NCBI GenBank assembly: GCA_004431415.1
Contig: QPMI01000489.1
Coordinates: forward strand, 55,710-119,709
Origin: Cyanophora paradoxa CCMP329
Lineage: Eukaryota > Plantae > Glaucophyta
DNA: 64,000 nt
Reading direction: 5' to 3'
Made by a program: the position numbers and the translations under genes. The notes under the pieces are model-generated. The model ran no database searches. It saw only the letters and a list, made by a program, of their open reading frames with translations, and was not told the origin of the DNA. Positions 23,599 through 63,999 of this stretch are shown here, piece after piece. Positions within the stretch are counted from its first letter, which is position 1. Each line of letters begins with the position of its first letter.

Positions 23599-23599
23599 T

Positions 23600-32543: not shown

Positions 32544-32640
32544 AAGTCTCGAACTTCTAAAGTTCTTTTCTTTTGTTAGTGTAGGAAGCGCAATTATTTG
32601 TAGGTGTGTACTTTATTTTGTTTTTTATCTTATTACTGTA

Positions 32641-35827: not shown

Positions 35828-35833
35828 ACCAGC

Positions 35834-37901: not shown

Positions 37902-38519
37902 TATAATAAAGCGTGCTCAGGTTACGGTGTCCAATCAAAAACGCACACAATTCAATCGGCGAAAGGGGGCATACGGGAAAAGCGAAAGGGGGGATACCAA
38001 AACACCGATTTTCGATGGAAATCGTCAAACGCTTGTATCTCATCACCAGCTCATCACCCTGCAAAACTGAAAATAGCGCCGTGACCGTCTTAACGAGGCT
38101 AGCACGTCCATATAAGTTTCATAGGCTCAAAAAATAATGTGTAAAATGCATAGTTTTTAAAAATGCGATCGCGACTTCGCGGAGACCCCCCCTTTCGTTT
38201 TCCGGGCATAACTTTGGACAGCAAGCCGATCTCGGCGCGCTCTCAATTGCTACGTGCTCGTAACTTGCTTCCGGGCATGTTGGTGCTAGTTTGACTAGCT
38301 AACTCAACCGTGGCAAGAAGTGCAAATTCGCCATAGGCACAAGTGCCCGAAAATCGAGGTGTCCGCTACATTCTGAGAGCCGGCGCGCGTTCCCATGAGG
38401 CTCCACTAGTCATACTTTGCAACCGTGCGCGTATAGAGTAGTTCTACGCTACTACAAAGCGGCGCGGTCTGATTCGCAAAGGGCGCGATTTGGCGGCTAC
38501 GAAAGCACCGCGGCGCCTA

Positions 38520-39962: not shown

Positions 39963-40025
39963 CAGACAATAAAAAAGATCAATGTAACATTTTACATGCA
40001 CGAGGCAATAGAAGGTTTTGTTTGT

Positions 40026-40631
40026 TTACGGTAAATCAGAGAAGAAGATATTAGCAACGACACCATTTCGGTTGGCTCCATTTATATACCACATGTGGCT
40101 GTTACGACTCCACTTCGCTCCATTATCTTTTAAGAATTTACGCAACGTTGTGCGGCGTGTAATATTAATTCCATGCTCTTCGAATTTCCGATGATATTTG
40201 GACAGATCGCGTTTAACATGGAAATATAGAATGTCGATCGGTTGTTGTTCATGCTCACGCTTCATGGCTCTCACTACATCTACCATGCTATACTGAGTGC
40301 ATCTAACATGACCCCAGAAATCCACAACAGGTAAATATCCTCCTGTATCATCATCGACCAGGATGATATTATACCTATATCTGTAAGGGTTCCCAGTGGC
40401 TTTAACATAAGCGAATACGTTATCTGATGATCGGATTACTATTTTATGCGGTTCTTCAATGAAGAAGCCAATCGACTTCACATCTTCTCTACGAATGTAT
40501 GTATTCACAAATGAGAATTGAACATGCTCACTATCAAAGGAGAAAATGACATCTAACAGTTCCACCATGTTTAATGACATTTCAGAGAGAGGGAAACTAA
40601 TGATAGGGTTACCATTAAAGCGATAAGCCAT
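40026..40631 (-). CDS. Hypothetical protein with a C-terminal DUF5710-like motif
   Basis: LKDNGAKWSRNSHMWYI resembles the K..GA.W....WY motif; AAAATTGA upstream. Confidence 0.55.
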   Translation of the reverse strand: MAYRFNGNPIISFPLSEMSLNMVELLDVIFSFDSEHVQFSFVNTYIRREDVKSIGFFIEEPHKIVIRSSDNVFAYVKATGNPYRYRYNIILVDDDTGGYLPVVDFWGHVRCTQYSMVDVVRAMKREHEQQPIDILYFHVKRDLSKYHRKFEEHGINITRRTTLRKFLKDNGAKWSRNSHMWYINGANRNGVVANIFFSDLP

Positions 40632-40770
40632 TGCCTTTTACTTTAAGCTGAGAAAATATTTTCCTGTTGCCTAAATGTAGCGCGTTCTCCTTAAATCATT
40701 TTGCGTTGCCCACGGGGCTTTCAATTTTTGACGATCCGCGGTGAGATTCTCACGTTTACTGTCAATAAAA

Positions 40771-41205
40771 TCAGGCTACCTGAGCGTTTATTGTCAAGAT
40801 TTTCACAATTGTTGTAAACTTTACAAGTAAATACTGTAAAACGCGCAATAAAAAAGGCGCAGTAAAAAAGGCGCAGTAAACGCGCAAATCATCGAGTATG
40901 ATTAACAGGTTACCGACTTTCTCCTTTTTCTTGATTCGCTCCTTGCGTTTCTGTATTATATTGTCGATCAGCTTATGATCGAAATCCTCATACAAATACG
41001 ATGTGACATTGTCATATTGATGGTTCCAGATCGTGGAAGCGAATATCATCACCGAATCTATCTTGTCCTCGTTGTGGTAAAGCAGGTATTTTAAGAATAC
41101 TGACTTACCTACTCCCGTTTTTCCGACAGCAAGTAAACGGCAAGGGAATGAAAGACTTGCCGGGTCGAATTCCGCAAGATCTTCTATACTCACGTTTCCA
41201 GTCAT
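40771..41205 (-). pseudogene. Truncated A32-like packaging ATPase
   Basis: Walker A VGKTGVGKS and Walker B IILDD are present. Similarity to the element A ATPase stops at ~40885, and the GRH and Q motifs are absent. Confidence 0.85.
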
Positions 41206-41252
41206 ATTTGCTTTCCCTTATAAGAAACAAAATAAAAATAAGATCTTTGTAT

Positions 41253-42203
41253 TTAGAACGACATTAAGAATTTTTTAATAGCCCCATTAACATCTTTTTC
41301 GGTGTATGCAATTCGCAGCAGGGCAATACCATTTGTTGCACAGTATCTACTTTTGATACTATCGCGCAGTTTTGTCAATTGTAGGTGCTCTTCCCCTCCA
41401 AAGAATGGAACGGCTTTGAAATGCTGAATTCCGTCATATTCGATTGCAATTTTAAGGCTTGGGATATAGAAGTCAAATCTAAGACAGTTTTGCAGTTTAC
41501 AGTCTTCGAATGTGTGTTGTGTTTCAAAATCTAGACCAATATCTTCGAGGACGTTTTGAATAATCATCTCTCCCTTCGATAAGTTGCAAGATGGACACCC
41601 AGCCCCTTCCAAATGTGAGTTTGGAGTTTGATCGAATTCTTTACCACATGAGCATATTATAGTTACTTTTGTTGCAGAAGTTTCATATGTAACCTTTCTA
41701 TAATCATATCTATTTCCATGGATTGCATTTGCTCGCTCAATAAACTCATCAGTAGTTAAACGAAGAGCTTCTGAACTTTGTTTTCGTCCACAGTCAGGAC
41801 ATCCATTTTTTATATGGATGTGGTTTCGAGGAGAGACATCGAATAACAGCCCACATCCGTTACATTTGAGCTTGACCTTGTCTTTCATTGTTTCAAACTC
41901 CACAAGGCTGTAATCATATTTATCTCCATGTATTTCTTTGGATCGTTCAATAAAGCCTTCCTTAGTAACACGGTGTGCTTGCTTGGATACCCCATCTTTC
42001 CGATTGCACGAATTGCATCCCTGACCATAGATATGTTTTGCAGGCGCTTGCAAGAACTCGCAATTACATTTCTTACAGATAATTGTGATTTTCGTGTAAC
42101 AGCCTGAGTAATTCGCTTTGGAATAATCGTAACGCCCTTCTCCATGAACTTCATTGGCTTTCTGAATGAATGTCTCCTGAGTGTAAGGTTTTCCCATCGG
42201 CAT
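41253..42203 (-). CDS. Zn-ribbon repeat (DUF723-like) + Vsr/PD-(D/E)XK-like putative homing endonuclease
   Basis: Three FI.KA..VHG..YDYS..CxxC..H..G.GCxxC repeats, then SKGE..I..L, LRFDFYIP..IEYDGIQH, D..K..YC..NGI.LLRI.Y. Confidence 0.85.
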   Translation of the reverse strand: MPMGKPYTQETFIQKANEVHGEGRYDYSKANYSGCYTKITIICKKCNCEFLQAPAKHIYGQGCNSCNRKDGVSKQAHRVTKEGFIERSKEIHGDKYDYSLVEFETMKDKVKLKCNGCGLLFDVSPRNHIHIKNGCPDCGRKQSSEALRLTTDEFIERANAIHGNRYDYRKVTYETSATKVTIICSCGKEFDQTPNSHLEGAGCPSCNLSKGEMIIQNVLEDIGLDFETQHTFEDCKLQNCLRFDFYIPSLKIAIEYDGIQHFKAVPFFGGEEHLQLTKLRDSIKSRYCATNGIALLRIAYTEKDVNGAIKKFLMSF

Positions 42204-42308
42204 TTTTGATCTTTCCTTCCCTTTACTCTATGTATTTGCCTTTTCTTTAAGTAGTTTTCCTATGGAAAACGTCAGAAAAATGACATCAAATTTTGCCCGC
42301 GAGATTCC

Positions 42309-43757
42309 TCATGCCGATATTCTACTGAGACCGTTGGCATTCATTACAAGAATATTGTGGCAGTAAGCCGAGATCTGAACACCGACCTTTGTCCAGGTGG
42401 CGAGGGGTGTGCCATTGGGTGTGAGGATTAGGAAGCTCGACGCTGATTGTGTTAGATCGACGTAGCCAGTCGCCTTCTCACCTTTGAGCGCCGCTTTACC
42501 ATCGAGAGCAAAGCAGAAGCCAGTGTAAATGGGGCGCTTGTTGCTATCGATCCAGTTGGTCATCTTGAATTTATCGGCGAGCTCCATAGCCGCGGATTGC
42601 AGCGGGACACCAGTGTTAGAATATAGGTAATTGTTGTTATTTAGAACTTGCATCACGACATTATCATCGAAGGCAAGGGTGCGGACAGTAGAGTGCCCTC
42701 CTTTATTATCGCCCAGTGTGTTTTCGTCGCGAACCTTGACAACAAGTGCGTAAACGAGTCCCGAAATTTGAGATAGTGACAGGCGCAGACCAGAGCCGAG
42801 AGCAAGACCGGTATAATCCGCAAACTGAATATCAGTGTAGGGGATGGCGATGCCAGAGGTCTTAACACGAGTAATGATTTCGCCCATCGTTTCCTCATCG
42901 ATGTTAACAGCATCCATAATAATACGAGGGGTCGTCATTTCCAGATTCGCAAGAGCAGGTGTAGGTGTGAGAGCCGCACTATCGAAAATCGCAGTGGCAT
43001 TAGGGTGAGCTAAGGTCTTAATATTTCCGAAAGCAGCCGCAACAGCAAGCGTCGTCTCGCCATCGGTCGAATTGGCAGCAGTAATTGCAGTCGTGTTATT
43101 CTGAGCGTAAACGCCAGGAACCGCCGCAGTTTCGAGCAGCGCAGGGGTTTGGAAATATACTTCGACCGCGATTTCGGATGGGAGCGCACCGATGGGCACG
43201 CCAGCATCGAGGAAGCTCGGAATTCGCATGGTAAAAATGCCACCGGCTTGGTTGCCGCCCTCCACCTTCGGTCCGAGATGCAGCCCATGCTTGCGCTTCT
43301 TTTGGTCGAATTCAGCCGGAGTGTTAGCCAGGAAAGCGTAATCTACCAGTCGCTCAGCGGGAATAATTTGCTCATACGACCCGTATTTAATGCTGACTCG
43401 CTGAACAAACGAGCCAGGAAGCCCGCGGACGAATCCAGTATTGAATAGATCAGCCGAGCAGTCAGCCGAGGTCTTGGCGATGGCAGTCAGCGCCTTCGCC
43501 GATGGAATGGTAACTTGGAGGCTAATACCATTGCACCAATTGTAGCGAGGGAGATAGAAGACCACACGAGTGGTAGCACCAGTAGAGGAGAACAGATTGC
43601 CGGGATCCGCAATTGGGAGCACCTCAACACGAGAAGGCTTGAATTGTTTATCAACGCCCACAATAAATCCGCGATCCAAAAGCATGCTCTTGTAATCCTC
43701 CGGGGTTTCCAGGACGGATTTGAGCGTGAGGCGGCTAAGCGAGGTCGTGGGATCCAT
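42309..43757 (-). CDS. Major capsid protein (double jelly-roll, inferred)
   Basis: 482 aa; VFYLPR, SFVQRVSIKYG, FTMRIPSFL..VPIGAL..IAVEVYF, ISAYCHNIL; homologous to the element A MCP and adjacent to penton and ATPase. Confidence 0.78.
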   Translation of the reverse strand: MDPTTSLSRLTLKSVLETPEDYKSMLLDRGFIVGVDKQFKPSRVEVLPIADPGNLFSSTGATTRVVFYLPRYNWCNGISLQVTIPSAKALTAIAKTSADCSADLFNTGFVRGLPGSFVQRVSIKYGSYEQIIPAERLVDYAFLANTPAEFDQKKRKHGLHLGPKVEGGNQAGGIFTMRIPSFLDAGVPIGALPSEIAVEVYFQTPALLETAAVPGVYAQNNTTAITAANSTDGETTLAVAAAFGNIKTLAHPNATAIFDSAALTPTPALANLEMTTPRIIMDAVNIDEETMGEIITRVKTSGIAIPYTDIQFADYTGLALGSGLRLSLSQISGLVYALVVKVRDENTLGDNKGGHSTVRTLAFDDNVVMQVLNNNNYLYSNTGVPLQSAAMELADKFKMTNWIDSNKRPIYTGFCFALDGKAALKGEKATGYVDLTQSASSFLILTPNGTPLATWTKVGVQISAYCHNILVMNANGLSRISA

Positions 43758-43790
43758 ATTTCGTTTTTATCTTCCGCTGAGAAATTTATT

Positions 43791-45077
43791 TTAGAAGAAC
43801 GGATTATTTTTTACAGCCACCCCGCTCAACGCATTCGTTAAATTGCCGCAATGCGGGTAGTCCTCATATAGCATTTTCGCGAATCCCTTATTAACAATGC
43901 GCTGTAAATCGTCGTCGGGCTCATCCACTCCCATAGTAATTTCCAAAATGAATGTGTGCTCACAGCTTCCGAGGAAATACCTATAACCGCTCTCCGTGAG
44001 AATTTGAACGGTTAAACTATCAAACGAAAGGCGGGTGTTAAAGTATTTCGTGAAAGCATCCGCCCCATAATTAATTAGCTCAGCATCCGCATAGGCTGTG
44101 CCTTTCGAAATCGGGATCTTAGCGAGGAATCCATTAGTAGCCTCGGTGCATGTCGTAAAAAGCGAGCAGTCCGGCTCTGTGATCTTTAAAACTATTGCAT
44201 TATCCGGTGTATAATCAGGGGCAGTGCCTCCGGCTATGCCTAAGACCAGAGCCGTCGAATTATAATTGCGGAATGCATCACCAGCTGAGTAAACGACACC
44301 GCTCCCAGCGAAGGCTGTGTAGCCCGATCCGTTGTATTGATCTATCATTATGTTCTCTCTGATCGATGTAAACCCGAGAAGAGTCATCGTGCGATAGGCG
44401 AGCACCTTTCTTTCATTCGCAGTAGACGAAGTGGCATTACTCGGACCATATTTAGTGAAAGCTATGTAGACATAATCACTCGAATAAAAGCATATGGCAT
44501 TTAATGTGCTCTCAAAACGGCATCTCACCACCGGGTAAAAGGTTCCCCCTGTCGATGCGTAGCTTGGATTAATTTTTGTGTCGATCATATCCTTGATGTA
44601 GTTGCCAGTTCCATTTTTCGTTAAGATGTTATCGATTGCAGTGGCAAGGTCGGTTCCAGTCGAGTATGTGCCAGGAGGGATCGTAATTGCTACGTCTCTG
44701 TATCGGGTATATCTTCTGAAAGTGTTTAGGTAATCAGGCGGTATATAGTTGCCTTGGTCGCCGAAATCTATCGCTTTGTATGCTTCGTATATTGCAGTTG
44801 CCTGTGTTTCTCTTATTTCCGCAGTGGCACCATTGAGCTGACCGCTCGAAAATCGGTAAGGAAATGATATGAAAATTGTATTAGCATCATCGGCTTTCGT
44901 CTCCCCGATTTCAGTATAGAATTGAGGGCTTGGAACCGTCGGAATCGTGTTGGAAAATTCGATCTGTCGCACAGCGATGCTCTTCACATTGTGGTATTGC
45001 TTTGGAAGGGTCACCTTATAGGAATGAGCCGAGCCCTCTGATCGATCACGGCTACTGATGCTGAGATACTCGCGCAT
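43791..45077 (-). CDS. Minor capsid (penton) protein 1 with a large insertion
   Basis: YLSISSRDR..SYKVTLPKQYHNVKSI..IEFSNT; FLAKIPI..LTVQILTESG..EHTFILEI. Confidence 0.8.
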   Translation of the reverse strand: MREYLSISSRDRSEGSAHSYKVTLPKQYHNVKSIAVRQIEFSNTIPTVPSPQFYTEIGETKADDANTIFISFPYRFSSGQLNGATAEIRETQATAIYEAYKAIDFGDQGNYIPPDYLNTFRRYTRYRDVAITIPPGTYSTGTDLATAIDNILTKNGTGNYIKDMIDTKINPSYASTGGTFYPVVRCRFESTLNAICFYSSDYVYIAFTKYGPSNATSSTANERKVLAYRTMTLLGFTSIRENIMIDQYNGSGYTAFAGSGVVYSAGDAFRNYNSTALVLGIAGGTAPDYTPDNAIVLKITEPDCSLFTTCTEATNGFLAKIPISKGTAYADAELINYGADAFTKYFNTRLSFDSLTVQILTESGYRYFLGSCEHTFILEITMGVDEPDDDLQRIVNKGFAKMLYEDYPHCGNLTNALSGVAVKNNPFF

Positions 45078-45104
45078 TTTATTCTTTATTAATAGGAAAT
45101 AAAA

Positions 45105-46078
45105 ATGATTCGGAAGCCAGTTAACGATTTCTATAATGGCAAGTTTACGAGGGTCAATGTTAATATCGATTCTATTGAGCGCAGTGCAGGGCACCCGGGA
45201 GAATATACAGTAAAGCTTTCTCAGCGACTTCTGAACGTAAAAGGGGTGCGCATTGCAAGCGCCGAGCTCCCAAACACGATTTATGCTGTCACCGATAATT
45301 CCAGAGGCGTGACCATACAGGGAATGACGAACAGCATCACCTTTTCCCCTTTCCCTGATATAGGAAACTACACCCCCGCGATTTGGGGATATGGTAATAA
45401 GAACTTAGGCTATTCGGGCAGCTTTGTAGATGTGGATCCTCTCACAAGCGAAAGCGTCACAGTCTACTACAAGTGGCTCTATAATCCAGCGACTATGAAA
45501 ATTACGTTTTATTCGAGCATTCCCCTCGCACTGAGCTGTGCACATGACGACTTTGCAAGGTTCCATGGAATGATCAAAGGGCAGATCTACCAAACAGCAG
45601 TCGCAGAAAAAGGAAGCCCTCATTATCAGGTCTCGTATGCTGATGTGACCCCATTCCACTTGCAGTATTCATTCTTGCAAGCATTCGAGGGTCGCTCAAT
45701 ATTCCCGCCTAATTTACCAATATCCGAGAAATTCCTATACAATGCAGTGACCTTCCCGAATGCGATTAATCTAAATCCGACCCCTATGTTTACCTACAAA
45801 TTAAAGAGTTTACTCCCTTTTACGACAGGTATATGGTGGCAGCAAAGACAGATGAGGGCGGAAATGCAAACCTCGCTAAGATCCCACTAACCAGCCCCTT
45901 GGGATCGTTTGTTTACTACCTGACATTCCGCAGAATCGATACTGTGGAGTTCTTTAATTCCCACGATCAGGCTTATGACATAGACACCCTCACAATTAAA
46001 TGGCTCGACGCCTACAATAATGTAGTCAACTTTAATGGCGTTAATCACAGCTTTATATTAGAGGTGCTATCGGGTTAA
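45105..46078 (+). CDS. Minor capsid (penton) protein 2; frameshift at ~45783 in a C-run
   Basis: VNIDSIERS..EYTVKL..NVKGVRIASAELPNT; after the shift LAKIPL..LTIKWLD..VNFNGVNHSFILEV. Confidence 0.78.
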
Positions 46079-46096
46079 AATAATCTTATATTACAA

Positions 46097-49000
46097 ATGA
46101 GTATCACGAATCTCCCCTTTATCACTCGGGAAACCTTGTATTTGGATGACGGTTTCGAGCTCAGCAGTAACATTACCGCTTCCAATGTGACCATATCTTC
46201 GAACCTTGTGGTAAAAGACTTTCTATTAAATCAGAGCAACCTTCAATATATTGATATCACCAGCAATCTCCCTTTTACCTATGGCACTGATAACTCAGCC
46301 CTCGTTATCTATCATGGGGGCTCGCCTGTTGCATTCTTTGGCAGCAATTTCCCCACAGTGCGAACCTTTCAGCACGAAATCAATAAAGCCCGCCCCATCC
46401 CACTGACAGCTGTCGTCGAATGGGATCCTGTTAAATATTCGCAGAGCATCACAAGCAATATCACACTCACTCGACCACATTTAATTGAGGTCATGGGGGT
46501 CGACCTTGTAAAGGAGTTTTATAGTGAGCGATTCACAAGAAACGAGCGAGATGTAGCCCAGGATCTCGAAATCTCGGGTTTATCAATTGCTACCGCAGCA
46601 AACACGGCAGGGCTCGCTGTTTTAACAGGTGCAATCACCATCACTGATGCGATCATGTATTTATCCCGCGATTTGGTGCCTTTGCTCGATCATCAGTTTA
46701 ATCTCGGGCAGTCTAACACTGATGCTGTTAAGAAATGGCTGAATGTGTATGCCTATGATGGGTGGTTTGATGACTTGCACACGACTAACCTTTATAGCAC
46801 GACCTCAAAAACAAGTAACATAATCTTGCCTTTCAATCACTCAGTCCGACCCAGTGATTTACCCACTGATGAGAGAGCTCTGATCAGCTATAACGACTTT
46901 AACAGCAATCTTTCCCGCTCAGTTTCGCGGACTGAGACCTACACTGTCGAGGGATACCCTCAGCAGCTCGCAAATGGGGTCTATGTCGCTTATGTAGGCA
47001 AACCTACATATACATTCACTTGGGATCAGTTGGGTGTCACAGGTTTGGAGAGTATACCCACTGTTTCATTGGTGGATCACACAACTTATTATAATCCTAT
47101 CACTAACAATAATGAATCTAATAAAGCGTTTATCCAAAATGTCACCTCCACAGGGTTTCAGGTCTCGTTTGTCATTAACGAGACATACAATTTACTTATC
47201 ATCCGAAACAACTCATTGAGTTCCGAAGCTACTATTAGTTTCACTCTCACCATCAATTACATTAGCCCTGTATTCGATAGCAAACCCAGAGTAAAGGTTT
47301 ACCGAGATTTACAAGGTAGCAATATCGTGCCCTTCTCACAGAATTTCGATCTTGGGGCGAATTCTTTAAGGTGGAACACAGTTTATACTTTGAGTGCAAA
47401 CACCTGTAATATTGTGGTCGCAGGATCATCGGCTACTATTGGAGAATTGACCGCCCCTTTTAGAAAGGAGTTTCTCAAAGAACTGTATATAACGAAGTCT
47501 GATTTACCAGATGCTATTTCGTTGGTGCTCTCCCCAACTCCCAGTATATCCTATCACAATGTGAAAGACACCAGTAATGTAGTGCAGAGGGGAAGCAAAG
47601 TATTCCAGGCATCCGAGATATCAGCAACAACATATAGATACCTTGCAGCGGTTCCAGCGAATTTTAATTTCACATTTGAGACACCATTTGTTTCCCCTCC
47701 TACTATTGAAATAACTGACACGAATTTGTATGTGGTAAATGATGGGTCAGCTACATCACTTCAAAATGCACCAGCCGGCTACTCTCCATTTGTCGCAACA
47801 AATATAACAACAACCGGCTTTACACTTGTCGGAAATGCAACAGTGACATATGCTCTGACAGCATATCCTGTTGGGTTGTATTTTGCGAAATTTAATCTTT
47901 CAGCGATCCCACCTGTGTCCCTTTCTCCTCCCTTTACTATAAGTTGGAAGGCAACAGGAACTATTCCGCGATTCGACCCCGAAGACCGCTTGAAAATTAG
48001 GTATCCTCTCGATGTGACCGACCTTCATACTACGAGAATCAATGGGCAGAATTTCGTATTTAATGGAACCAATGCAACTCTGATCGATAATCGAGTAACG
48101 AATAATTACTTTTTCGATTCTCGATATATTAATACTTGCAATATTGTCATACAGAACACGTTTGAGAATCGAAGTAAGACCTTATCAGTCACCTTGCCCA
48201 CTCACTCGAATGTCTCAGATGGATTTCACTATTATCTTTTCAATCGCAATTACACCTCATATATTCCATACCCTTCTGAGACTGTCAACATGAGCTATCC
48301 CAGAGTCACCCTTACATCGACCAATGCTGACTTCTTTGGATCCACGGACTTTATGACCTTCTTTGCTTTCACATCCTCTACTGATGGGCTCTTAGTTTAT
48401 TACACTTTCAAATCTGATACTGTTGCTACCCAGATTGAAAGCCACCCAAACACTGATATTATCACAGTAGGCGATAAGAAATATATAAAAACCGCTTCCC
48501 CATGGGTTTGCACTGTCCGGCTCGATGACAGATACACTCCTAACCTAAATAGCATTGGAATGCACTCGACATGCAATATTTATGTGCAAGGTGCAATTTC
48601 AGCTTCAAAGTACTTTGAGGGTGGGAACTGTGATGCAGCCCATAGGTTGCTATCGAGAAATGGACTCTTTGAGTCATTTAGTGGGACAGCTCTACCGCCA
48701 TTCATCAGGGACACAGTCTATGATACAACATGCAATATTTGGGTGTGCCGATCTGTGATCAATCCACCTGTAACACAGGAATTATACAGTTACCTCGCGA
48801 ATAAGTATGGGGCAATCACAGGGTCTTCAACAGGAAATCCAGCAACAGCTCCTATCGTGTTTGCAAATGCATACACAGCGCCAACCTCATTGGCAGGGTC
48901 GACAGAACCGCCACCAAACGATCCCAATCCGAACCAGCCTAACCCAGATCCCGATTCAAAAGATCCCCCTACAACTGATCCAGATCCAAACACGACACCT

Positions 49001-49420
49001 AATAATCCCACTAATCCTACAAATCCAGTCGGAGCACCCGGAATGGATCCAGGAACGTTAGTGCTTCTCATTCTCTTGCCGATTCTCGGTGCTCTTGGAC
49101 TTGTGCTTGCATACAAATTCCGAGCTTTATGTTGTGCTTGCATAGACAGAACCATTGCAGGTGCAGGTAATAAATACTCGGTGCCAGAAATGAATGTGAC
49201 CCAAACAGCCGAAGGAGATGTGGGGTTAGAGGTGAGGTCAGCCGAGGGGCATGGTCTTAGTGTTGTGAGAACTGATCAACCACCAGCAAGTAGGGCAGCA
49301 CCCAAAAAATCGCGAGCAGAACGAATGGCTGAATCAATAATAAAAGATAATGCAGACTTTATGGCGGAAATTGCACAACGAGAGGGCAGAACATACGAGC
49401 TTCTCCCAATGCGACCCTAA
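46097..49420 (+). CDS. Large fibre/spike-like protein with Pro/Asn stalk and C-terminal transmembrane helix
   Basis: Thr/Ser/Asn-rich; fibre-like repeats LVP..FNLG..KW..VY and IVP..FDLG..RWNTVY; PNDPNPNQPNPDP stalk; TLVLLILLPILGALGLVLAY. Confidence 0.7.
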   Translation: MSITNLPFITRETLYLDDGFELSSNITASNVTISSNLVVKDFLLNQSNLQYIDITSNLPFTYGTDNSALVIYHGGSPVAFFGSNFPTVRTFQHEINKARPIPLTAVVEWDPVKYSQSITSNITLTRPHLIEVMGVDLVKEFYSERFTRNERDVAQDLEISGLSIATAANTAGLAVLTGAITITDAIMYLSRDLVPLLDHQFNLGQSNTDAVKKWLNVYAYDGWFDDLHTTNLYSTTSKTSNIILPFNHSVRPSDLPTDERALISYNDFNSNLSRSVSRTETYTVEGYPQQLANGVYVAYVGKPTYTFTWDQLGVTGLESIPTVSLVDHTTYYNPITNNNESNKAFIQNVTSTGFQVSFVINETYNLLIIRNNSLSSEATISFTLTINYISPVFDSKPRVKVYRDLQGSNIVPFSQNFDLGANSLRWNTVYTLSANTCNIVVAGSSATIGELTAPFRKEFLKELYITKSDLPDAISLVLSPTPSISYHNVKDTSNVVQRGSKVFQASEISATTYRYLAAVPANFNFTFETPFVSPPTIEITDTNLYVVNDGSATSLQNAPAGYSPFVATNITTTGFTLVGNATVTYALTAYPVGLYFAKFNLSAIPPVSLSPPFTISWKATGTIPRFDPEDRLKIRYPLDVTDLHTTRINGQNFVFNGTNATLIDNRVTNNYFFDSRYINTCNIVIQNTFENRSKTLSVTLPTHSNVSDGFHYYLFNRNYTSYIPYPSETVNMSYPRVTLTSTNADFFGSTDFMTFFAFTSSTDGLLVYYTFKSDTVATQIESHPNTDIITVGDKKYIKTASPWVCTVRLDDRYTPNLNSIGMHSTCNIYVQGAISASKYFEGGNCDAAHRLLSRNGLFESFSGTALPPFIRDTVYDTTCNIWVCRSVINPPVTQELYSYLANKYGAITGSSTGNPATAPIVFANAYTAPTSLAGSTEPPPNDPNPNQPNPDPDSKDPPTTDPDPNTTPNNPTNPTNPVGAPGMDPGTLVLLILLPILGALGLVLAYKFRALCCACIDRTIAGAGNKYSVPEMNVTQTAEGDVGLEVRSAEGHGLSVVRTDQPPASRAAPKKSRAERMAESIIKDNADFMAEIAQREGRTYELLPMRP

Positions 49421-49449
49421 TTTTTGTAGTATGCCTTAATAGAGAAATA

Positions 49450-50912
49450 ATGACGGAACCCATAGTAGAAACGACAGTAAAGAATGCTGTATTGGATAAT
49501 CAATTTTATATAACCCATGGCAATATACCCAGTGAATCCAATGACCTAATTGTTAATCTAAAAGGCTATGTGATGGGAGCTATGGCTTCTAACCTATGGA
49601 ATGACCTTTTCGGTTACGAGTTTGGTCACATCTATGACATTGCAAATGGGATCGGCTATGTGGATGCAATGGCAGGCACAGCCTTTCGCAATTTAAATTG
49701 CAACTGTGTGGGTGGGTGGATGTTTCAGATCTGTTCAAATGTCGATCCTACTATTGATCCCGCCACTGTGACCTTTGATTGCAATCTGTATGCCCCAAAA
49801 CCATTTTTTCTATCACTTGCAATCTCGTTAATTCGGATGTGCCCATAGTAGCACCTGTAATAGGTGCATCAAATATGTATATCCAAAGAAATCCGGTCGT
49901 GCATACAGGCGCCGAATTTATATTAGGCGACAACACCCCAATTAGTCGACTCGAATTGCCCACGAATTTCACCTTTAATCTCGTGGATGAGTTCCCTAAC
50001 AGTCAAAGTCTCATGTATTTCACCTCTGAAAATCGCCTTTCGGGTGCATTCTCGCCCATCGAGCTCTCTATACCGAAGCAAAAGGTGAGCTATAAAGAGC
50101 TTACAGATGTGCCGGCGGGTTTTAGTGGGAAGTGGAGTGATATCATTCAGAAGCCGACTTGGAGTAGTGTAGCATACACAGGAAATTACTATGATTTAGT
50201 AGGAACTCCCGATTTCACAAGCTATATACCTCGTTGGATCGATCAAGGTGTAATTATATCAGAATCTACACTCCCTTTCAATGGGACATGGGATAGGTTA
50301 TTTACTAAGCCGAATTTGCATGCTGTTGCCACAAGTGGTGACTACAACGATTTAACTAACACCCCCAATGCACCGACCTTGCATGCTGTGGCTACAAGTG
50401 GGAGCTATACAGATTTAGTTAATACACCTAACCTCCACGCTGTGGCTACAAGTGGAAATTATGATGATCTGATTAACACACCTACTTCGCCACCCACTCA
50501 CAATCACAGCATAGAGTTGCTCACGAATTTCGGTAGTTATGTGAATCCAAATGCATATGTGCAACAAGGGACAGCGAATGTAGTTTTGGAAAATAGAATA
50601 TACAATGCAGGAGAGACCTTTCAGTTATCGGGAACGGTCGTATTCTCTACCCCATTTTATAGTGATGCAGTGATTACTACCTCTATCGAGAATAGCTACA
50701 ACTCTGTTAATTGGGAAATGACCAACTGTGTGTATATCGGACCTGAGTATGTTAATAATGAGAGAGTAGGACTAAAAACTAAGTTTACATGGATCGTTAG
50801 ATTCACAGCTTTCGCATCGACTAATTTCACAAATGTCACAGCAGCAAATCGCACCCTTAAACTCCATTGGATTGCTGTCGGACCTCTCCAAAACAATAAT
50901 ATTCTCACATAA
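49450..50912 (+). CDS. Tail-fibre-like protein; frameshift at ~49795
   Basis: Repeats LHAVATSG(D/S/N)Y.DL.NTP typical of phage-type fibre shafts. Confidence 0.7.
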
Positions 50913-50933
50913 TAAGTAAAGAACAATCAAAAG

Positions 50934-51934
50934 ATGTCGACTGTATTCACACCTGTGTTTTCCTTATCAGCCAGTGCTGTCCATAATGTGCAACACACAG
51001 TCTATGATTTATCTCCGAGCCACCCTTCGACTGAGACAGCGAAAACCGATTCTTTTAATGACCAAAGCATACTCAGAGTCAAAGAACTCAGAGCTGACAA
51101 GATTGATGGACTCGTTAAAGCTACTCAAATGATCGTATCGAATCGACCCGCAATCTCTTCGGGGCTGGTCACCAAAGAAAATCTATATGAAGGTCAACAG
51201 GATTCCAAAACGGCTTTTAATCCGGCTGATAGGAATTCGGCGGCTTTCCAAGTTTACAGTGGCGGGGCATGGATTGGGACTGGATTGGGAGTGAATGGGA
51301 ATGCGACAATTACAGGAAGCCTTACAGCTGGATCATTTGAAACAGTTAAAACGACGACTATTGATTCTGGGGCGAACACAGAATTAGTAATTAAGCGAAA
51401 CAATGAGAATATCGCTTCCACATTTGTAAACAGCTTCACCAATTCAACAAGTGGGGCAGTTGCTGGAACTTACAGCTGGAAAGGTCTTACAGTCAATGGG
51501 ACAAACTCTTATCTTGGGACTCCAAACCATCCTCGATTTTGCTATGGATTAAATACAACAGTAACATCAGCTGCAATTATCAACGCATGGGGCATATCAT
51601 TTTAGGATCAACATCATTTTCGAATGGAGTATTCACAGCACCCATAGGAGGACATTACAGGTTCGTTTTCACAGCAATGACATCAAGATATGATACAGGA
51701 AACACACATGTTATTTTACAAGTAAATGGTGCAGATACAGCAGTGAATGCATTAGTAGGTGTTGTAACTAATGCAGATGAATATAGAAGATATCGCTGTC
51801 TCGGTTTCAACACTATTCAATCACTTAGTGCAGGTGATAGTGTGCGACTCAGATTAGCATTGGGTAGTCAGCTTTATGGTGATGCAAGCACTGCATTTTG
51901 TCAATGGTCAGGTGAATTAATTTCGGCAATATAA
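50934..51934 (+). CDS. Fibre protein with C-terminal gC1q-like head; frameshift at ~51537
   Basis: FSNGVFTAPIGGHYRF..LQVNG..LSAGDSVRL..WSGELI matches the C1q globular-domain pattern. Confidence 0.72.
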
Positions 51935-51942
51935 GTAAAAGA

Positions 51943-52206
51943 ATGTCGAACATCTACCAAGTGGTTCTAACTGATACTGAAAAACTCGGAATGGAATACT
52001 GTGCCTACTCTGTTCAGGATTGGATCGATAATGCTGCTCATAATAGGGCGAGAATCGCGATTGATGAGATTGTGGACAAAGAAGTTAAATCGTGTATTGC
52101 TGCTGGAATTCCGATTCCACTCACAAAGGAAGCGATTGTAGAGCAAGCGTTTAATCGGGGGACTGTTCGAAAGGCAAGCGAAATTCCTGTGAGTGCTCCT
52201 ATGTAA
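51943..52206 (+). CDS. Small phage-type protein of the kind found after C1q fibre genes (possible assembly chaperone)
   Basis: LTDTEK..MEY.A..VQDWIDNA.HNRARIAIDEIV..IP.TKEAIV; recognised from memory of phage proteins. Confidence 0.6.
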   Translation: MSNIYQVVLTDTEKLGMEYCAYSVQDWIDNAAHNRARIAIDEIVDKEVKSCIAAGIPIPLTKEAIVEQAFNRGTVRKASEIPVSAPM

Positions 52207-52253
52207 AGAGAGATGGGTTTATTGTTATTTTTCATAGATCATGCATAAGAAAG

Positions 52254-53719
52254 GCATGTATCTTGCATAGTGGGCGGGGCGCACTTATCCCCTTCGTATC
52301 CACTTCGTATCCACTTCATATCCACTTTGTGTTCACTAAATTATATCGCACTGATTCAGTTTGCATTTTGCCCCCACCCTACACCCCACCCTATACTACA
52401 ATCTCGTTATTTCTATACATATTTACTATCTAATTTAATAGAGTTTATACATTGAAATAAGTGAGGTGTATCGATAAGTAATACAGGGTGGGGAGGGTGG
52501 GGTTGGGTGGGGTCTTTTTTGCCCAAAAATATTTGACCCCCAAAAATTTAAGGGATTCAAAAAAATGCCCCACCTCACCCCACTTACCCCACCCTATCGA
52601 AGTCCGCACGATATCATAGTAGGCTACATCGGGATTGCGATCATATCACAGTGTATACAGTGAGGGTGGTGCCCCACTTTCTCACCCCACCCTATCGATT
52701 CGCGATTCAGGGATCGCGAAATATACAGCACATGATACTTGTTTTTCTTAGTGATCGCGCCGTTCTAATACGATCTGAATATATCATATCTCGTCGGTAT
52801 CACGTCGGTTCAATATCGTAATTATTAAATGGTTGGCTGATACCACTTTCACACCCCACCCTCACACCCCACCCGGTATTAATTTAACATACATAATCTC
52901 TATACTTTATACATTAATTACATTGAAATCAATCATAAATATAATAAAAGATACAGGGTGGGGTAAGTGGGGTTGGGTGGGGTCTTTTTTGACCAAGAAT
53001 TTTTGAGGGGGAATTATTTTAGGGAATTCAAAAAAATGCCCCACCTCACCCCACCCGCCCCACCCTATCGAAGTTATCGAAGTCCGATAAGTATCAAACC
53101 GGAAGTAAAAATAACACATCATGATTTTATGTGTGCCATCTTAGATTGGACTACCATACCGATACCACTCACACCCCACCCTCACACCCCACCCAGTATT
53201 AATTTAACATACTCAATCATACATATTTATATTTAAATTACAGTGAAATCAATCATAGATAAAGAGAATAATACAGGGTGGGGTAAGTGGGGTTGGGTGG
53301 GGTCTTTTTTGACCAAGAATTTTTGGGAGTGAAACATTTTAGGGAATTCAAAAAAATGCCCCACCTCACCCCACCCGCCCCACCCTATCGAAGCTACGTA
53401 GGTGATACACATGACTATATGAGGCGCGTCCCAAGCAGCACATTGTAGTTGTTTTAGATACACATCGCGCATCGTAAACACATATCGGCTATATCGCGAT
53501 TACATATTATATATACATATTTTACAAAGATTCCACGATACTTATATTATTTTTATTGATTCATTTACGAACTACCGATAGAATACATATCACATATCGA
53601 TATACACTATGATAAAAATGCTAATATCTTTATATAACTTATAGTAACACACATATAAAAACAAATATTATTATCCTGAGCGGAACGCGAGGGATAATAA
53701 TATTTGTTTTTATATGTGT
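52254..53719 (-). repeat. Right TIR of element B
   Basis: Inverted copy of 35834-37298; terminal hairpin at 53649-53719. Confidence 0.95.
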
Positions 53720-54316
53720 ACCAGCTCGCCATAGCTCATCTCGCACCAGCTTGTTCTCGTGCAAAAGATCAAGGAATCGTTTGAAAATGGCGCTCGAGCT
53801 CGAAACTGAGCTAGCTGCAGCTACAGCATCCGCCGCGGGATTCGAGTTCCAAGCCGAGGTGCAAGTGTCCGTCGCAAGATCATGAGCGCCGCCGTCCGGA
53901 ATCGACCGAAGAGCCGCCGCGCCAGTGCCGCTATCGAATTGAAGCTCGAGCGCTCCAGATGAGCCGAGAACCCAGGCTGCAAAGGCACAGACCTCTTGGT
54001 TTTGAACGACGTAAGCAACTCGCAGCTGCGGGCTATTCGACACAGGCCGAGAGAACGTGAGGCCTCCGTATTTATCCACGTACGCGCGAGCAGCCGCACA
54101 GCTCGTCTCGTCGCCGGCTCCCGAAAAGCAGCTGGGTGTAATTCCAGGCGGGTGGGCAATGCATACGACGGCGCCCAGCACCGGGCTCCAGCTCTTGGTA
54201 ACAGAGACGAGAGGGAAGCGAAGCAAGAAGGTGGCCTCTTCGTCGCTAAAGCTGATGGTCTGAACACCTGGAAGGCGCGAGAGGAGCTCGTCGCTGCACA
54301 CGCTGGCCGGCGCCAT
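53720..54316 (-). pseudogene. N-terminal piece (199 codons) of the interrupted UL9-like helicase
   Basis: Starts at ATG 54316; ELWRAG joins QALRISID at 35827 in frame across the ACCAGC TSD. Confidence 0.85.
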
Positions 54317-54407: not shown

Positions 54408-54458
54408 CTGTCCGGACCCTCCCTAGAATCATATAGATTATCGGAAAGGTCCGGACAG
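54408..54458 (-). repeat. Third (inverted) copy of the GTCCGGACC palindrome
   Basis: Reverse complement closely matches 21621-21671. Confidence 0.85.
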
Positions 54459-54552
54459 TACCGTCGTCCGTCCAATAAGAAGAAAAGCTGGGATGGCTGT
54501 TGCTGTCTGGCTGTAGTTTGGAAATTTGTAGGACGGCCGTATAGGCTAGCAC

Positions 54553-54853
54553 TGTTACACGACTTCGTCTGTCTGTTACACAGAATTTGAGGCTGTGTTA
54601 CACAATTACGTCGGACTGTTACACAAGAGTCTAGCTTCTGTTACACAGATCTCAAGCGTATGTTACACAGTTTTGTATGGGAAGGGACTCGTCCGACGAC
54701 TTCAGAAGTAAAATTGAAGGATGGATCTGGGGCCTTCACACGTGGATCTGTGTAACACGCGTGGATCTAGCTGTGAGAGACGGGGCGGCAGGCGGGGGCC
54801 CGTGTAACACAGCCGCGGGCCCTGTGTAACAGTCGGACGAGGGGCGTGTAACA
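54553..54853. promoter_or_regulatory. Phased iteron-like array (TGTTACAC x6, then inverted GTGTAACA x4): candidate replication origin
   Basis: Direct copies at 54553, 54574, 54596, 54617, 54639, 54661; inverted copies at 54750, 54802, 54824, 54846; period 21-22 bp. The repeats are certain; the function is inferred. Confidence 0.65.
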
Positions 54854-56688
54854 GGCCTGGGCCTGACCTCGGCCTAGCTAGCACTCACTCAACCGGACCC
54901 CGTTGAGCGCCCTAGCCTAATAGGGTACAGGCCCGGCAGGTGGAGGGGGAGCCGGCCTAGTCCCGTCGGTCCTGGGCTCGAGCTCCAGTCTCTAGGCCCG
55001 GCGCCGCCGGCGGCCGCAGTGCTAGCTAGCCTGGGTTTAGAAATTTGTGGGACGGCCGTGTGCATCCACGTGTTCGAGGGTGATTGGTCGACAAAAAAAC
55101 GTGTCTGAGCTTCAGAGTCTGACGGTCCACGAACCGCCGGTGGCTACTAGTACGGTACGTAGTAGTGCTAGCTGCGCTGGTACTACCGGTACCGGCGGTA
55201 CGTACGGCAGGCGTTGGTACTACTAGGTTACTCGGTACTAGAGTCGGTAGCTAGCTGCCAGTAGTAGCTGGCCCACCCAGGCCCGGTGGTCTAGTGGCTA
55301 GTAGTGGGCTAGTACTAGGCTGTGCTAGGCCGCTGCGGCCCGCCGGGCTGCTAGGCTGTGCCAGCTATAGCCGCTGAGCGGCCTAGCACCGAACTACGGT
55401 GCTACGGTAGTGCGGTGCACAGTGCAGCGCCGGTAGCCGCGCGCCTGCCAGAGTCCGGGAGTCCGCACTGCTCAGCCTGGCAGTGCTCGCTGAGCTCGGA
55501 GTCGGTGCTGTCGACCGTCGGAAGTCAGTCTCAGGGCCAGCTGCGCGCCGGGCCGACGCCTGCAGCGCTGCGCAACCGGTGCATTGCTGCGGCCTTGAGC
55601 TCTCTGCAGCTGCAGCCCGCTCGATTCGGCGAGCTTGCAGAGGCCAGCGCGTGTCGTAGCCTCGTAGACTGCCCGTAGAGGCATTGCACCGGAACCGTAC
55701 GCACTGTGACGAGAGCCGTGCATCGTGGCCCGAGCAGCCCCATGTCGACGCGGCTGCCTCGCCCGTGTACGAGTGTACGTGCGCCCCCGGCCCGGCCCGC
55801 GTCCCGAGTCCCGAGCCACGCAGCCTACGCCTTCTAGCTGCCGGCGCGGCCCCGATTGGAGGCTCTCTCGACGCCCGACTGACGCCGCCTTGCGCAGGCC
55901 CGATCGCCGCGGCCGCCGGCCTTCGGAGCTCTCCGAGTCTGACCAGCGCTCGAGCTCTCCCGACCCGCGGTCTCTTCAGGTGCGCGCCCGCTGTTCTCGC
56001 CCCGCGCTCGCTCTTGCGGTGCTGTACTAGCCGCGCTGAACCGCTCCGGAGCCGCGGCCCGTTGCTCCGGCCCTCGGCTGAAACTCGGGCCTCGCAGTGC
56101 AGGTGCACCCGAGAGTCTGGTCCTGCGCATCCCGGGGGCCCGCGCTTGCAAGCTGCGCACGTCCCACGTGCTCTAGATACGCTCTAGCGTTCCAGCGCGC
56201 TGGCCCGGCGCTCCCGGGCCCCGATTTCGGCTCCGCCCCCCGCGCCCCCGACCTCTTCGCCCGCCTAGCTAAGGCCCGCCCGCCGGCGCCTGGCCCGGAT
56301 CTCTGCTCAGCGCGACGCAGGGCCCATGGGGCGGGAGGCCGCCGCTGGCCCAGCGGTCAGGGCGCCGTCCTTGGCCCCGGTGAGTGCGCCCGCCGCCTGC
56401 CTTGACCCCCGACCTGAGCCCCTTTTGCAGGGCGCTGGGCTCTCCAATCGCGCCACTCGCCCTTTCCTGCCCCGCCCCGCCACGCCCGCCCCGCCTCGTG
56501 TGCGCTATAGCTAGCTAACCCTGCCCCGCGCCGCAGAGGGTTCGTAGCGGAGGGCTCGCAGGCTGCGGCGCCAGTGCTCAAGACGGAGCCCGAGCCCTGC
56601 AGACGCAGACGTCGAGATGGCGGAGGCCAAGGCGCCCGGCTCCCCTGCCCCTCGCTCGAGTCACTGTGTTTTTTCAAGGCCACTCAAA

Positions 56689-57318
56689 CTACGCATCTGT
56701 ACACATGGCTGCCTGCAAGTTCGTGGGAAGGGGGTGCGCCTTAGGGAGGGCGGGGAGGGTGTCTGGAATCGGCAGTGCCGGTATCGCCTGCGCCGGGATC
56801 TCATTCAGAACAGCATGGCGTCCATGATGCTCCAAGGCGAGAATGTTGTAGCACTGAGCTGCTTCAATTTCTGTTTTGAAGTAGAACTCTTTCACTTTCT
56901 TCGGGGCCACCTTTATTTTGGCCACCCAGAGGTTATCTCGTTTCCGAAAGTCCACGCCCTTGAACTTTGAGGTGAATTCACGACCAGCTGGAGGGCGCAT
57001 TTTCGCTCGATTCCTGCAATTTTCGGATTTAGTGACGAACTCCAGGTTGCATTTTCGGTTGTCGAGCTTGTTTCTGTTGATGTGGTTGGTTTCTCTACCT
57101 GTAGGCGGCTTGCCCATGATGAAGTGATGAATCAGCACGTTTCGATGTTTTCCTTCTCCGTTCCATTTCATGTATGCCTTTGCGTAGCCCAGGTAGTTGA
57201 CGCTCCAACCATGTTTCGACACTCGCTCGTAGTCCTCGGCATCGATGAGCATGTGCAGGCCCTCGCCATGTTTGCCTGATAATTTCACCTCTATGCAGTT
57301 TCCGGCTGTTCCCTGCAT
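56689..57318 (-). CDS. HNH endonuclease with AP2 DNA-binding domain
   Basis: LIDAEDY..W..GYA..IHHFIM..NHINRNKLDNRKCNL..EN..N; TSKFKGV..WVAKI..FKTEIEAAQCYN..HG..A.LN. Confidence 0.9.
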   Translation of the reverse strand: MQGTAGNCIEVKLSGKHGEGLHMLIDAEDYERVSKHGWSVNYLGYAKAYMKWNGEGKHRNVLIHHFIMGKPPTGRETNHINRNKLDNRKCNLEFVTKSENCRNRAKMRPPAGREFTSKFKGVDFRKRDNLWVAKIKVAPKKVKEFYFKTEIEAAQCYNILALEHHGRHAVLNEIPAQAIPALPIPDTLPALPKAHPLPTNLQAAMCTDA

Positions 57319-59980: not shown

Positions 59981-60433
59981 GCGTCATTTACGTCCGCGTC
60001 ATTTACGTCAGCGTCATTTACGTCACGGAGTTTGCCGGCGACTCGGGACCTGGGCCAGGGCCCGGGGAAAAAAATTCGAGACTTGGAAAAATAGGGTATC
60101 CCTAATACCGCTAGTACCAGTAGCTACTAGTACCGCTAGTACTACGTAGTACTACTTAGTACTACTACTGTACTACTTAGTACTACTACTGTACTACTTA
60201 GTACTACTTGCTCAGTACTACTAGCTACCGGTACTGGTACACCTTTTATAGATTTAAGCATTCATTCAATGTGAATAACGATAATAGTAATAATAATAAC
60301 GATAAATAATAGGGATACCCTATTTTTCCAAGTCTCGAATTTTTTTTCTCGGGCCCTGGCCCAGGTCCCGAGTCGCCGGCAAACTCCGTGACGTAAATGA
60401 CGCTGACGTAAATGACGCGGACGTAAATGACGC
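59981..60433. repeat. 124-bp inverted repeat (59981-60104 / 60310-60433) carrying three GACGTAAATGACGC-type units around an AGTACT/AT-rich spacer
   Basis: Direct comparison; a partial third copy lies at 61212-61282. Confidence 0.9.
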
Positions 60434-62421: not shown

Positions 62422-63198
62422 ATGGCCACCGTCCGCACGCCACGAGATCGACCCGCCAAGCTCGCCTTCGAATCGACGCCAACGGCCGCATCAAGGCCAA
62501 GTACGACGGCTTGCAGGGCCTCATGATGTACGCGCCGCCCATGGTCACGATCAACCCTGCATCAACACGAGCAAGGCAAGGCGTGGAGCGACGAGAAGAA
62601 GGCCTTCGTCATGGAAGAAAACGGCGGATTCTACACGCTGGACCTCACCGATCTCAGCGCCGTCGACGGCCAGACGAACCCGGCCGCGGACGAATTCCTC
62701 AAGCTGCTGGAGGCCCTGGACGCGAAATTCTGCGAGTTCGTGCAGCAGAACCAGGCCAAGCTCAAGGTCTCGCCCGGGCGCGCCCTCTCCAAGGACCAGA
62801 TCTCGGTGCTGCAGACGCCCAGCGTGCGCATCAAGGTCGACAAGGAGTCGGGCCAGGCCTTCTACAAGTACCTCAACATGCGCATCCGCACGCAGACGAT
62901 GGCCGGCAAGCGCAAGACCGTGCCCGTCGTCGACATGTCCAACTACCTCATCACCGAGCGCGCCACCATCGGCACCGGCGACCTGGTGGCGGCCCTCGTT
63001 AAAATCGACACCGCCTACGCCATCCCCGAGGGCAAGTTCGGCCTCAAGTGGTCCTTCCTCGCCGTGCAGCAGTGCAAGGTCGGCGCCTTTCGCTTCGCCG
63101 GCCGCACGCCCGAGCTGGCCTTCAAGCCCTACGACAACGAGGCCGATTTCGAGCCCTACCTAAACCCCGAGTCTATGTATGCAGCCCCCATGCAGTAG
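62422..63198 (+). CDS. Putative OB-fold ssDNA-binding protein (T7 gp2.5-like / NCLDV type); 5' part frameshifted
   Basis: FYTLDL..FLKLLEALDAKF..YLNMRI..GDLVAALVKI..GKFGLKWSFLAVQ, with an acidic/aromatic tail. Confidence 0.65.
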
Positions 63199-63252: not shown

Positions 63253-63999
63253 TCAGAGGCCGTTGAACTTGCCGCCCACCGCCCTGGGCTCCGCCGCCGT
63301 CGAGGCCGCCGCCTCCGTCACCTCCTTCATCATCTCCGGGTTCGCGTTGGCCGCGTGCACCGCCAGCACCGTCTGCACCAGGGCCATCCCCAGGCGCGCC
63401 TCGGGCCCCAGGGTCACGTAGCGCGAGTACTTAATCACCAGCTCCTCTAAGATCGGCTGCACCTGGTCCATGGAAGAGAGCGTCGCCTGCCCGAGCCCGT
63501 CTAACTTCAGGCCGATCGGATCGTACGCTTTGTTAAGGTGCTCCAGCGAGTGCATGCCCGCGATCAGAAAGAGGCGCGCCGCCTCCAGCGAACCCCGCGT
63601 GCTCAGCTCGCGCTGAATTTCCTCGTACTCTTCCTTCAGCTCGTCCAGCGGCGTGGCGAGGCTCAGCTTCTTCGTGGACGTCAGCTCGCCCCCGAACGAG
63701 CGCCTGTACTGCGCGATCTGCCGCAGAACCTGCTTCTTCTCGTCCACGTCCACCTGCGCCTCGTCGCGCGGCCTCTCCTGCAGGTCGATCCCCAGCGCCT
63801 TTTTCACGCTCTGCTCCTTCTTCTTCGTCATTTCGATGTGCTCCTGCACGCTGAAGCTCGCGCCCTTGCTCGGCGCCGTCGGCGGCACCGTGGGCCCGTC
63901 GCCCGGTAGCGACGTCTTGTCGGCCTTCGGCGCCTTCTCGCCCTTTTCCTTGCCTTCCTTCGCGGGGCGGCCCTTCTTCCGAGGCTGCGGGATCCCCAC
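63253..63999 (-). CDS. DUF5767-like Nucleocytoviricota protein (5' end probably outside the window)
   Basis: LDELKEEYE..LEHLNKAYDPIGLKLDG..ILEELVIKY..LGPEARL..VHAAN matches the family pattern as I recall it. Confidence 0.7.
   Translation of the reverse strand: MGIPQPRKKGRPAKEGKEKGEKAPKADKTSLPGDGPTVPPTAPSKGASFSVQEHIEMTKKKEQSVKKALGIDLQERPRDEAQVDVDEKKQVLRQIAQYRRSFGGELTSTKKLSLATPLDELKEEYEEIQRELSTRGSLEAARLFLIAGMHSLEHLNKAYDPIGLKLDGLGQATLSSMDQVQPILEELVIKYSRYVTLGPEARLGMALVQTVLAVHAANANPEMMKEVTEAAASTAAEPRAVGGKFNGL

Follow-up and report, generated by a model that had tools for sequence, protein, structure and literature searches.

Overall organization of the locus

The window, i.e., the whole 64,000-nucleotide stretch of Cyanophora paradoxa DNA analyzed here, contains host-like DNA at its left and an outer element into which two further elements are nested (Table 1). 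We regard the outer element as a multicopy Nucleocytoviricota-like insertion that is likely endogenous in the genome of this alga. It carries a UL9-like helicase gene, which the nested elements split into three in-frame pieces (3,099 nt and 1,032 aa in total). Upstream of this gene, with 237 bp between the ATG and the nearest site, lies an array of the octamer TGTTACAC. The sequence-only reading had placed the array directly upstream of the helicase; the short distance agrees with this, but a hairpin lies in between, and the adjacent piece encodes only the N-terminal 197 aa. On the other side, a palindrome-rich, low-copy stretch of 1.5 kb (55100-56600, 70% GC) with no convincing gene separates the array from an HNH endonuclease gene.

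Table 1. Coordinates of the features of the outer element in the window
Feature	Position	Strand	Remarks
YqaJ-like recombinase/nuclease gene	20823..21479	+	PF09588, E 6.3e-28
51-bp hairpin, two further copies	21479..21529, 21621..21671	+	Between YqaJ and helicase stop codons
Helicase piece 3	21780..23193	-	Second RecA domain motifs and C-terminal region
Nested insertion A	23194..34734	.	Terminal inverted repeats, 5-bp target duplication
Helicase piece 2	34740..35833	-	Walker A and B region; PF02399 (Herpes_ori_bp), E 3.9e-13
Nested insertion B	35834..53719	.	Long terminal inverted repeats, 6-bp target duplication
Helicase piece 1	53726..54316	-	N-terminal 197 aa; no Pfam family, no DxD
51-bp hairpin, imperfect	54408..54458	-	Between array and helicase ATG
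Bracket direct repeat, left copy	54516..54540	+	
Left arm of array	54553..54668	+	Six TGTTACAC octamers, 21/22-bp spacing, 58% AT
Central spacer	54669..54749	.	81 bp, 52% AT
Right arm of array	54750..54853	-	Four inverted TGTTACAC octamers, spacings 52, 22, and 22 bp, 35% AT
Bracket direct repeat, right copy	55035..55059	+	23/25 identical to left copy
HNH endonuclease gene	56689..57318	-	Weak AP2 domain; in the array's low-copy stretch
127-bp inverted repeat (98%)	59981..60433	.	Around phased short repeats
Predicted ssDNA-binding-protein (SSB)-like gene	62527..63198	+	
DUF5767 gene	63253..63999	-	E 2.2e-13; outer element runs past window edge here

Layout of the octamer array

The window holds 12 copies of TGTTACAC, where 0.88 would be expected and no more than 5 arose in any of 100 shuffled sequences; 10 of the 12 are confined to 301 bp (54553-54853), and the word is absent from the host part of the window. 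The forward octamers start at 54553, 54574, 54596, 54617, 54639, and 54661, which reproduces the spacings of 21, 22, 21, 22, and 22 bp read initially; when six sites were placed at random, an all-21/22 phase arose in 1 of 400,000 simulations over 130 bp and in 0 of 400,000 over 310 bp. The inverted octamers start at 54750, 54802, 54824, and 54846, so that the last three are indeed 22 bp apart. The variability of the spacers also holds, with a mean identity of only 37% over the 13 nt located 3' of each forward octamer; the array is therefore not a plain tandem repeat, and the octamer has been kept while its surroundings drift. The direct repeat said to bracket the block at ~54516 and ~55035 is likewise present, and no third copy exists in the window at up to six mismatches. 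In the contigs of three of the four sequencing runs, the first base of the sixth forward site (54661) is C.

The two arms constitute a degenerate inverted duplication centered near 54705, whose 39-nt arms are 79% complementary. The 20-bp core of the spacer (54700-54719) consists of an A-rich 10-nt loop flanked by 5-bp inverted arms, and the best 40-bp window at the array center reaches 65% AT, compared with ~40% AT for the outer element. This duplication, in which context beyond the octamer is conserved, could mean that the array is a functionless, decayed product of local tandem and inverted duplications, all the more in a genome rich in local repeats and in an element copy damaged by two insertions. 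However, ten exact octamers at constant spacing among such dissimilar spacers are the reverse of neutral decay, and the word is nonrandomly tied to origin-like sites in other viral contigs (80 loci analyzed of at least 121; see below), which makes this explanation very improbable.

The split UL9-like helicase

All three helicase pieces match the same protein group. The PF02399 match of piece 2 (48.9 bits against a cut-off of 20) covers model positions 43 to 162 of 820, i.e., the first RecA domain only, and the SF2 motifs were located in pieces 2 and 3. In a PDB sequence search, herpes simplex virus (HSV) origin-binding protein provided the four best of five matches (E 0.053 to 0.058). Piece 1 shares 30% identity with the N terminus of homologue P0002, and piece 3 shares 43% with homologue P0001. 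In protein searches, the credible homologues are Cyanophora paradoxa gene models only; they are diverged and form two groups, ~48% and 77 to 80% identical to piece 2, which together with the window copy gives three helicase variants. Copies of this helicase are named on the C. paradoxa contigs tig00021037, tig00021462, tig00021428, tig00021763, tig00000983, tig00000443, tig00021742, and tig00000128. A further candidate, P0006 (E 6.7e-4), was discarded as a cysteine-repeat protein. No helicase relatives were found in viral and metagenome contigs with the few exact peptide words used, a search in which absence weighs little.

The N-terminal 337 aa (piece 1 and the first 140 aa of piece 2) contain no DxD and match no Pfam family at E values up to 5, and hence an active primase is not indicated. 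At the other end of the protein, the last 170 aa were modeled as three helices followed by a β-hairpin with a basic tip, an arrangement as a winged helix would show, in a model of low confidence (mean pLDDT 52.3; hairpin below 50); a 470-aa helicase part was modeled with a pLDDT of 40.5. Fold searches with the low-confidence C-terminal model returned 0 matches at E 0.001 in BFVD, where the row of best probability was a viral origin-binding-domain protein (E 0.95), and 0 of 48,161 chains at Z 5 in VIA. The Atlas gave nothing above 0.83 for the C-terminal part.

The two insertions, which interrupt the viral helicase gene at points ~1.1 kb from each other, are different AT-rich Polinton-like or virophage-like elements. 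Insertion A has a weak integrase match, an SF1 helicase, and an A32 ATPase, and insertion B has an A32-like ATPase piece and fibre-like genes; for their putative capsid proteins, a PDB sequence search gave nothing credible. Insertion B carries tandem arrays of 11, 21, and 30 bp immediately interior to its left terminal repeat (37587-37902), and insertion A carries 12-bp arrays close to its right end (33640-33920). Targeting of a larger virus's replication gene is a possible origin of this pairing. Since the gene is split, no full helicase can come from the window copy, so that the array would function only in trans or in a copy with a whole gene. From contig ends and lengths we infer that a form with the gene undivided is likely to exist: in all four runs, contigs terminate precisely at the target duplication of insertion B, and the contig of run X2 carries 1,102 extra bases, exactly the length computed for the empty-site form of insertion A.

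Contig depth and affiliation of the outer element

Contig depth, a rough measure that gives no copy number and of which only the contrast is used here, is at host level in the four runs up to ~19100; it is high from ~19100 to the helicase end and again from ~57.4 kb to the window edge. In run X16, host unique contigs have depths of 191 to 250, the helicase and array contigs 507 to 553, and single contigs of the flanking viral genes 5,200 to 5,900. A high-depth repeat also occurs at 16070-16780, within the host-like DNA to the left of the outer element. In each of the four runs, the array is spanned by one contig with 0 or 1 differences at ~2 to 4 times the host depth; it is therefore not a dispersed repeat at 80% likeness, which the sequence-only reading had named as a refutation of its proposal. 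The entire stretch from 53.7 to 57.4 kb is low-copy, so that the shared depth does not single out the array.

The gene content of the outer element fits a mriyavirus-like insertion. The nearest Atlas clusters of the SSB-like gene are Nucleocytoviricota DUF5871/DUF2738 (features 0.94 to 0.96, of low recognition value and a lead only), and its product shares 98% identity with a cluster of 22 members, 14 of which are listed by name, all from C. paradoxa. At 62420-62570, this gene lacks in frame the N-terminal ~40 residues of its 260-aa paralogues; other copies carry single-base insertions there, and the window copy therefore looks frameshifted. According to C. paradoxa gene names, homologues of the helicase and of the SSB-like protein lie on one contig (tig00000443 g778 and g767). 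Relatives of the SSB, DUF5767, and YqaJ genes with DNA context were not found with a few exact peptide words, for which absence is weak evidence.

A subset of Yaraviridae carries UL9-related SF2 helicases (10.1101/2024.02.29.582850), giant-virus insertions have been reported in C. paradoxa, and mriyavirus-related regions have been reported in a glaucophyte assembly (10.1101/2025.04.19.649669); the supplementary maps of the latter study may include the outer element. The YqaJ and SSB-like genes are not specific to Mriyaviricetes, and no capsid, packaging ATPase, VLTF2, VLTF3, or HUH endonuclease gene was detected among the ORFs scanned of the outer element, which exceeds the window; membership in Mriyaviricetes is thus putative.

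The same octamer in viral contigs

Viral contigs were scanned for two copies of TGTTACAC spaced by 21 or 22 bp, yielding at least 121 loci, of which 80 were analyzed with their flanks and 41 were dropped. Intergenic clusters with TGTTACAC on both strands are present in 24 of these 80 loci, compared with 0/80 for each of two permuted control words of the same composition, one of them, like TGTTACAC, near-palindromic. A primase-helicase gene lies beside 10 of the 24 clusters (9 of 17 nonredundant groups) and beside none of the other 56 loci analyzed; the Pfam families concerned are DUF3987 with Prim-Pol, DUF5906/D5, DUF927, and VapE-like. The Pfam scan covered the longest ORFs near the clusters, and five loci have no 200-aa ORF within 1.5 kb. 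In 9 of the 56 noncluster loci (80 analyzed of at least 121), the TGTTACAC pair falls inside a phage initiator gene. Three phased copies occur at 12 viral loci, among which L122, from the contig of L010, adjoins a primase-helicase already counted; 11 ORFs from eight other three-copy loci match no primase-helicase family.

Nine clusters (L007, L011, L016, L021, L032, L034, L042, L056, and L065) are located instead by terminase-small-subunit or cytosine-methylase genes, with no primase-helicase among the ORFs scanned there. The centers of the phage clusters are much more AT-rich than that of the window array. An HMM of three helicase C termini matched none of 11 phage proteins; since the phage helicases show no detectable similarity to the window helicase, the shared word is an analogy and not a homology. 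Judged by the sequence contexts in which it recurs, TGTTACAC is a recurrent origin-type word, from which it does not follow that the window helicase reads it.

Hairpins and other repeats of the outer element

Three copies of a 51-bp hairpin bracket the helicase gene, ~100 bp from each of its ends, the copy at 54408-54458, 95 bp from the array, being inverted relative to those at 21479 and 21621. Their z values range from -4.4 (54408-54458) to -5.6, and at the RNA level G-U pairs let each copy fold better on one of its strands, which for the 54408-54458 copy is the strand of the helicase. The hairpin is multicopy in the organism, and another copy has the same arm around a different AT-rich core; it may be read as a terminator, a resolution site, or a cassette boundary. 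The inverted repeat at 60 kb is also multicopy, with a third arm at 61180 (61180-61282). Within it lie AGTACTACT repeats phased at 10/21 bp as well as a 40-bp stretch of 85% AT, the highest AT content in the outer element; this palindrome is a candidate family-wide origin or bidirectional promoter. Units of TGACGTAAATGACG recur with a 15-bp period in three places, including the 127-bp inverted repeat (59962-60433), and TCACCTGA units with a 23-bp period (61278-61350 and 62329-62351) are followed by a TATA-like word before the 61.4 kb ORF.

Because other phased arrays thus precede other genes, two further explanations of the octamer array retain some probability. The array could be an upstream activating or silencing region through which a host transcription factor controls the helicase promoter, the phase reflecting cooperative binding. 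It does lie 5' of the helicase gene, the TGACGTAAATGACG and TCACCTGA arrays are likewise intergenic, and 6 of its 10 sites read CTGTTA, which may resemble a MYB site; mriyaviruses, moreover, are described as having no RNA polymerase and as presumably relying on host nuclei. Nevertheless, such a factor would leave the two-way symmetry and the enrichment of the word beside primase-helicases unexplained, a strong hairpin, which folds best on the helicase's strand, separates the array from the ATG, and the host part of the window is devoid of the octamer. We consider control by a host factor unlikely.

Alternatively, the array could be recognized by a different protein of the virus, for instance an HUH initiator or a packaging factor whose gene lies outside the window, or it could be a secondary site, with the 60-kb palindrome serving as the family-wide origin. 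An HUH endonuclease is reported for all mriyaviruses and proposed as their initiator, the palindrome is multicopy around AT-rich DNA, nine of the 24 phage clusters of the word (80 loci analyzed of at least 121) lie beside terminase-small-subunit or methylase genes, and a hairpin lies close to the array. A family-wide site would, however, be expected to be high-copy like the core genes, whereas the array is low-copy like its helicase variant, although variable spacers would hide diverged copies; in addition, there is no HUH gene among the 35 ORFs scanned. Binding by a different viral protein carries a similarly low probability.

A proposed origin-initiator pair

Compared with these alternatives, we favor, at about even chances, the reading in which the array is an iteron-type origin of the virus-like element, predicted to be read by the adjacent UL9-like helicase. 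The array is nonrandom and phased; the helicase combines the PF02399 match with SF2 motifs; array and helicase share a low depth against high-depth flanking viral genes; and TGTTACAC marks origin-like clusters beside primase-helicases of unrelated viral contigs (80 loci analyzed of at least 121). On the opposite side, the center is not strongly AT-rich and the right arm is 35% AT, the array precedes the gene whereas SaPI origins follow it, other phased arrays lie before genes and a palindrome with an 85%-AT core lies at 60 kb, and for mriyaviruses, as the likeliest group, initiation by an HUH endonuclease has been proposed. GC skew, calculated as had been suggested for the outer element, does not switch clearly at the array in the visible part of this incomplete element.

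In the proposed mechanism, helicase molecules would dock via their C-terminal domain every two helical turns along each arm, all on the same side of the DNA. The helicases on the two arms would oppose each other over the 81-bp spacer and open the duplex, assisted by the SSB-like protein of the element and by host replication enzymes. Binding at the array could also repress the helicase's own promoter. The original proposal of a cis origin or autoregulatory operator for the adjacent helicase thereby gains indirect support from the shared low depth, the nondispersed array, and the octamer beside primase-helicases; its herpesvirus analogy fares less well (see below).

A broader reading, for which the balance is clearly less favorable, is that origin and initiator form exchangeable modules in a family of eukaryotic Nucleocytoviricota-like viruses, in which each UL9-like helicase variant (three groups within one algal genome) has its own phased iteron array, as in plasmid incompatibility groups; the design would be that of phage satellites, with the same octamer as in phage primase-helicase origins. 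If it is true, an origin would have been identified, together with sequence-specific initiation by UL9/R8/F1055L-like helicases outside the herpesviruses.

Comparison with known replication origins

Plasmid iteron origins have direct repeats with a ~22-bp phase, that is, two helical turns, beside the initiator gene. The window array has the same two-turn spacing of direct repeats beside a putative initiator gene; unlike plasmid iterons, its units conserve only 8 bp, and a second, inverted arm is present.

HSV-1 UL9 and oriS share with the window locus a PF02399 SF2 helicase and inverted octamer sites around a spacer. HSV Box 1 is GTTCGCAC, and the recognition motif of UL9 is RVKNL (PMC12543377); Box 1 and TGTTACAC agree in 4 of 8 positions, and neither the C-terminal piece of the window helicase nor its paralogues contain RVKNL. 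In contrast to oriS, described with three boxes and a short AT-rich spacer, the window has ten sites over 300 bp and a spacer that is 52% AT. Compared with the domain layout of UL9 (PMC13483431), the window helicase has an extra N-terminal region of ~330 aa, and its Pfam match is restricted to model positions 43 to 162. The likeness to the inverted UL9 boxes that the sequence-only reading had drawn is therefore weak.

The small nuclear Nucleocytoviricota form a second comparison group, consisting of Mriyaviricetes (a Yaraviridae subset with UL9/R8/F1055L-like SF2 helicases; 10.1101/2024.02.29.582850) and the SmDNAV primase-helicase of Ariadnavirales. These viruses have a UL9-related SF2 helicase, a PDDEXK/YqaJ-type nuclease, and a T7-like SSB, to which the helicase, YqaJ-like, and putative SSB genes of the outer element may correspond. 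Their helicases are described with an intact AEP primase, whereas the N-terminal 337 aa of the window helicase are without DxD; in the literature covered, no origin is described for them.

By analogy of layout, a closer known counterpart than the herpes oriS appears to be the origin of SaPI, PICI, and P4 elements. In SaPI origins, the helicase encoded next to the opposed iterons recognizes them through its C-terminal domain (PMC7581432), a self-loading Rep or PriRep helicase is encoded beside the origin in SaPI/PICI (10.64898/2026.10.17.759575), and the alpha protein of phage P4 has a C-terminal winged helix (PMC2777425). They are alike in having short iterons in two opposed sets (here 6 + 4) over ~300 bp next to a helicase gene. 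They differ in that the window helicase is a UL9-like SF2 enzyme, while theirs are SF3 or MCM-like hexameric Rep proteins; the window array is 237 bp upstream of the ATG, while theirs is directly downstream of the helicase gene; and the strict 21/22-bp phase, the center of only 52% AT where SaPI/PICI/P4-type origins have an AT-rich region, and the eukaryotic host are particular to the window. A possible likeness of the octamer to the iteron of phage P4 found no confirmation, since the word considered for that iteron does not occur in the literature looked up.

The sequence-only reading knew of no description of this arrangement for such a virus. Titles and abstracts in our literature search, from whose scope subscription journals mostly fell out, describe neither such an array nor an iteron origin for the UL9-like helicase of such a virus, but the layout itself is known; since the design is familiar from bacterial satellites, the surprise is limited. 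What was not found in the literature searched is the pairing with a UL9-like SF2 helicase, the upstream position, the strict two-turn phase, and the setting in a multicopy, likely endogenous virus of an alga. Mimiviruses, African swine fever virus, some mriyaviruses, and SmDNAV also have UL9-related helicases, but in the literature covered a defined origin is described for herpes UL9 only. The present locus provides a concrete 8-bp candidate site together with an intact coding piece for the C terminus, and its host genome harbors several diverged variants of the helicase, which makes an origin-binding role of UL9-related helicases directly testable.
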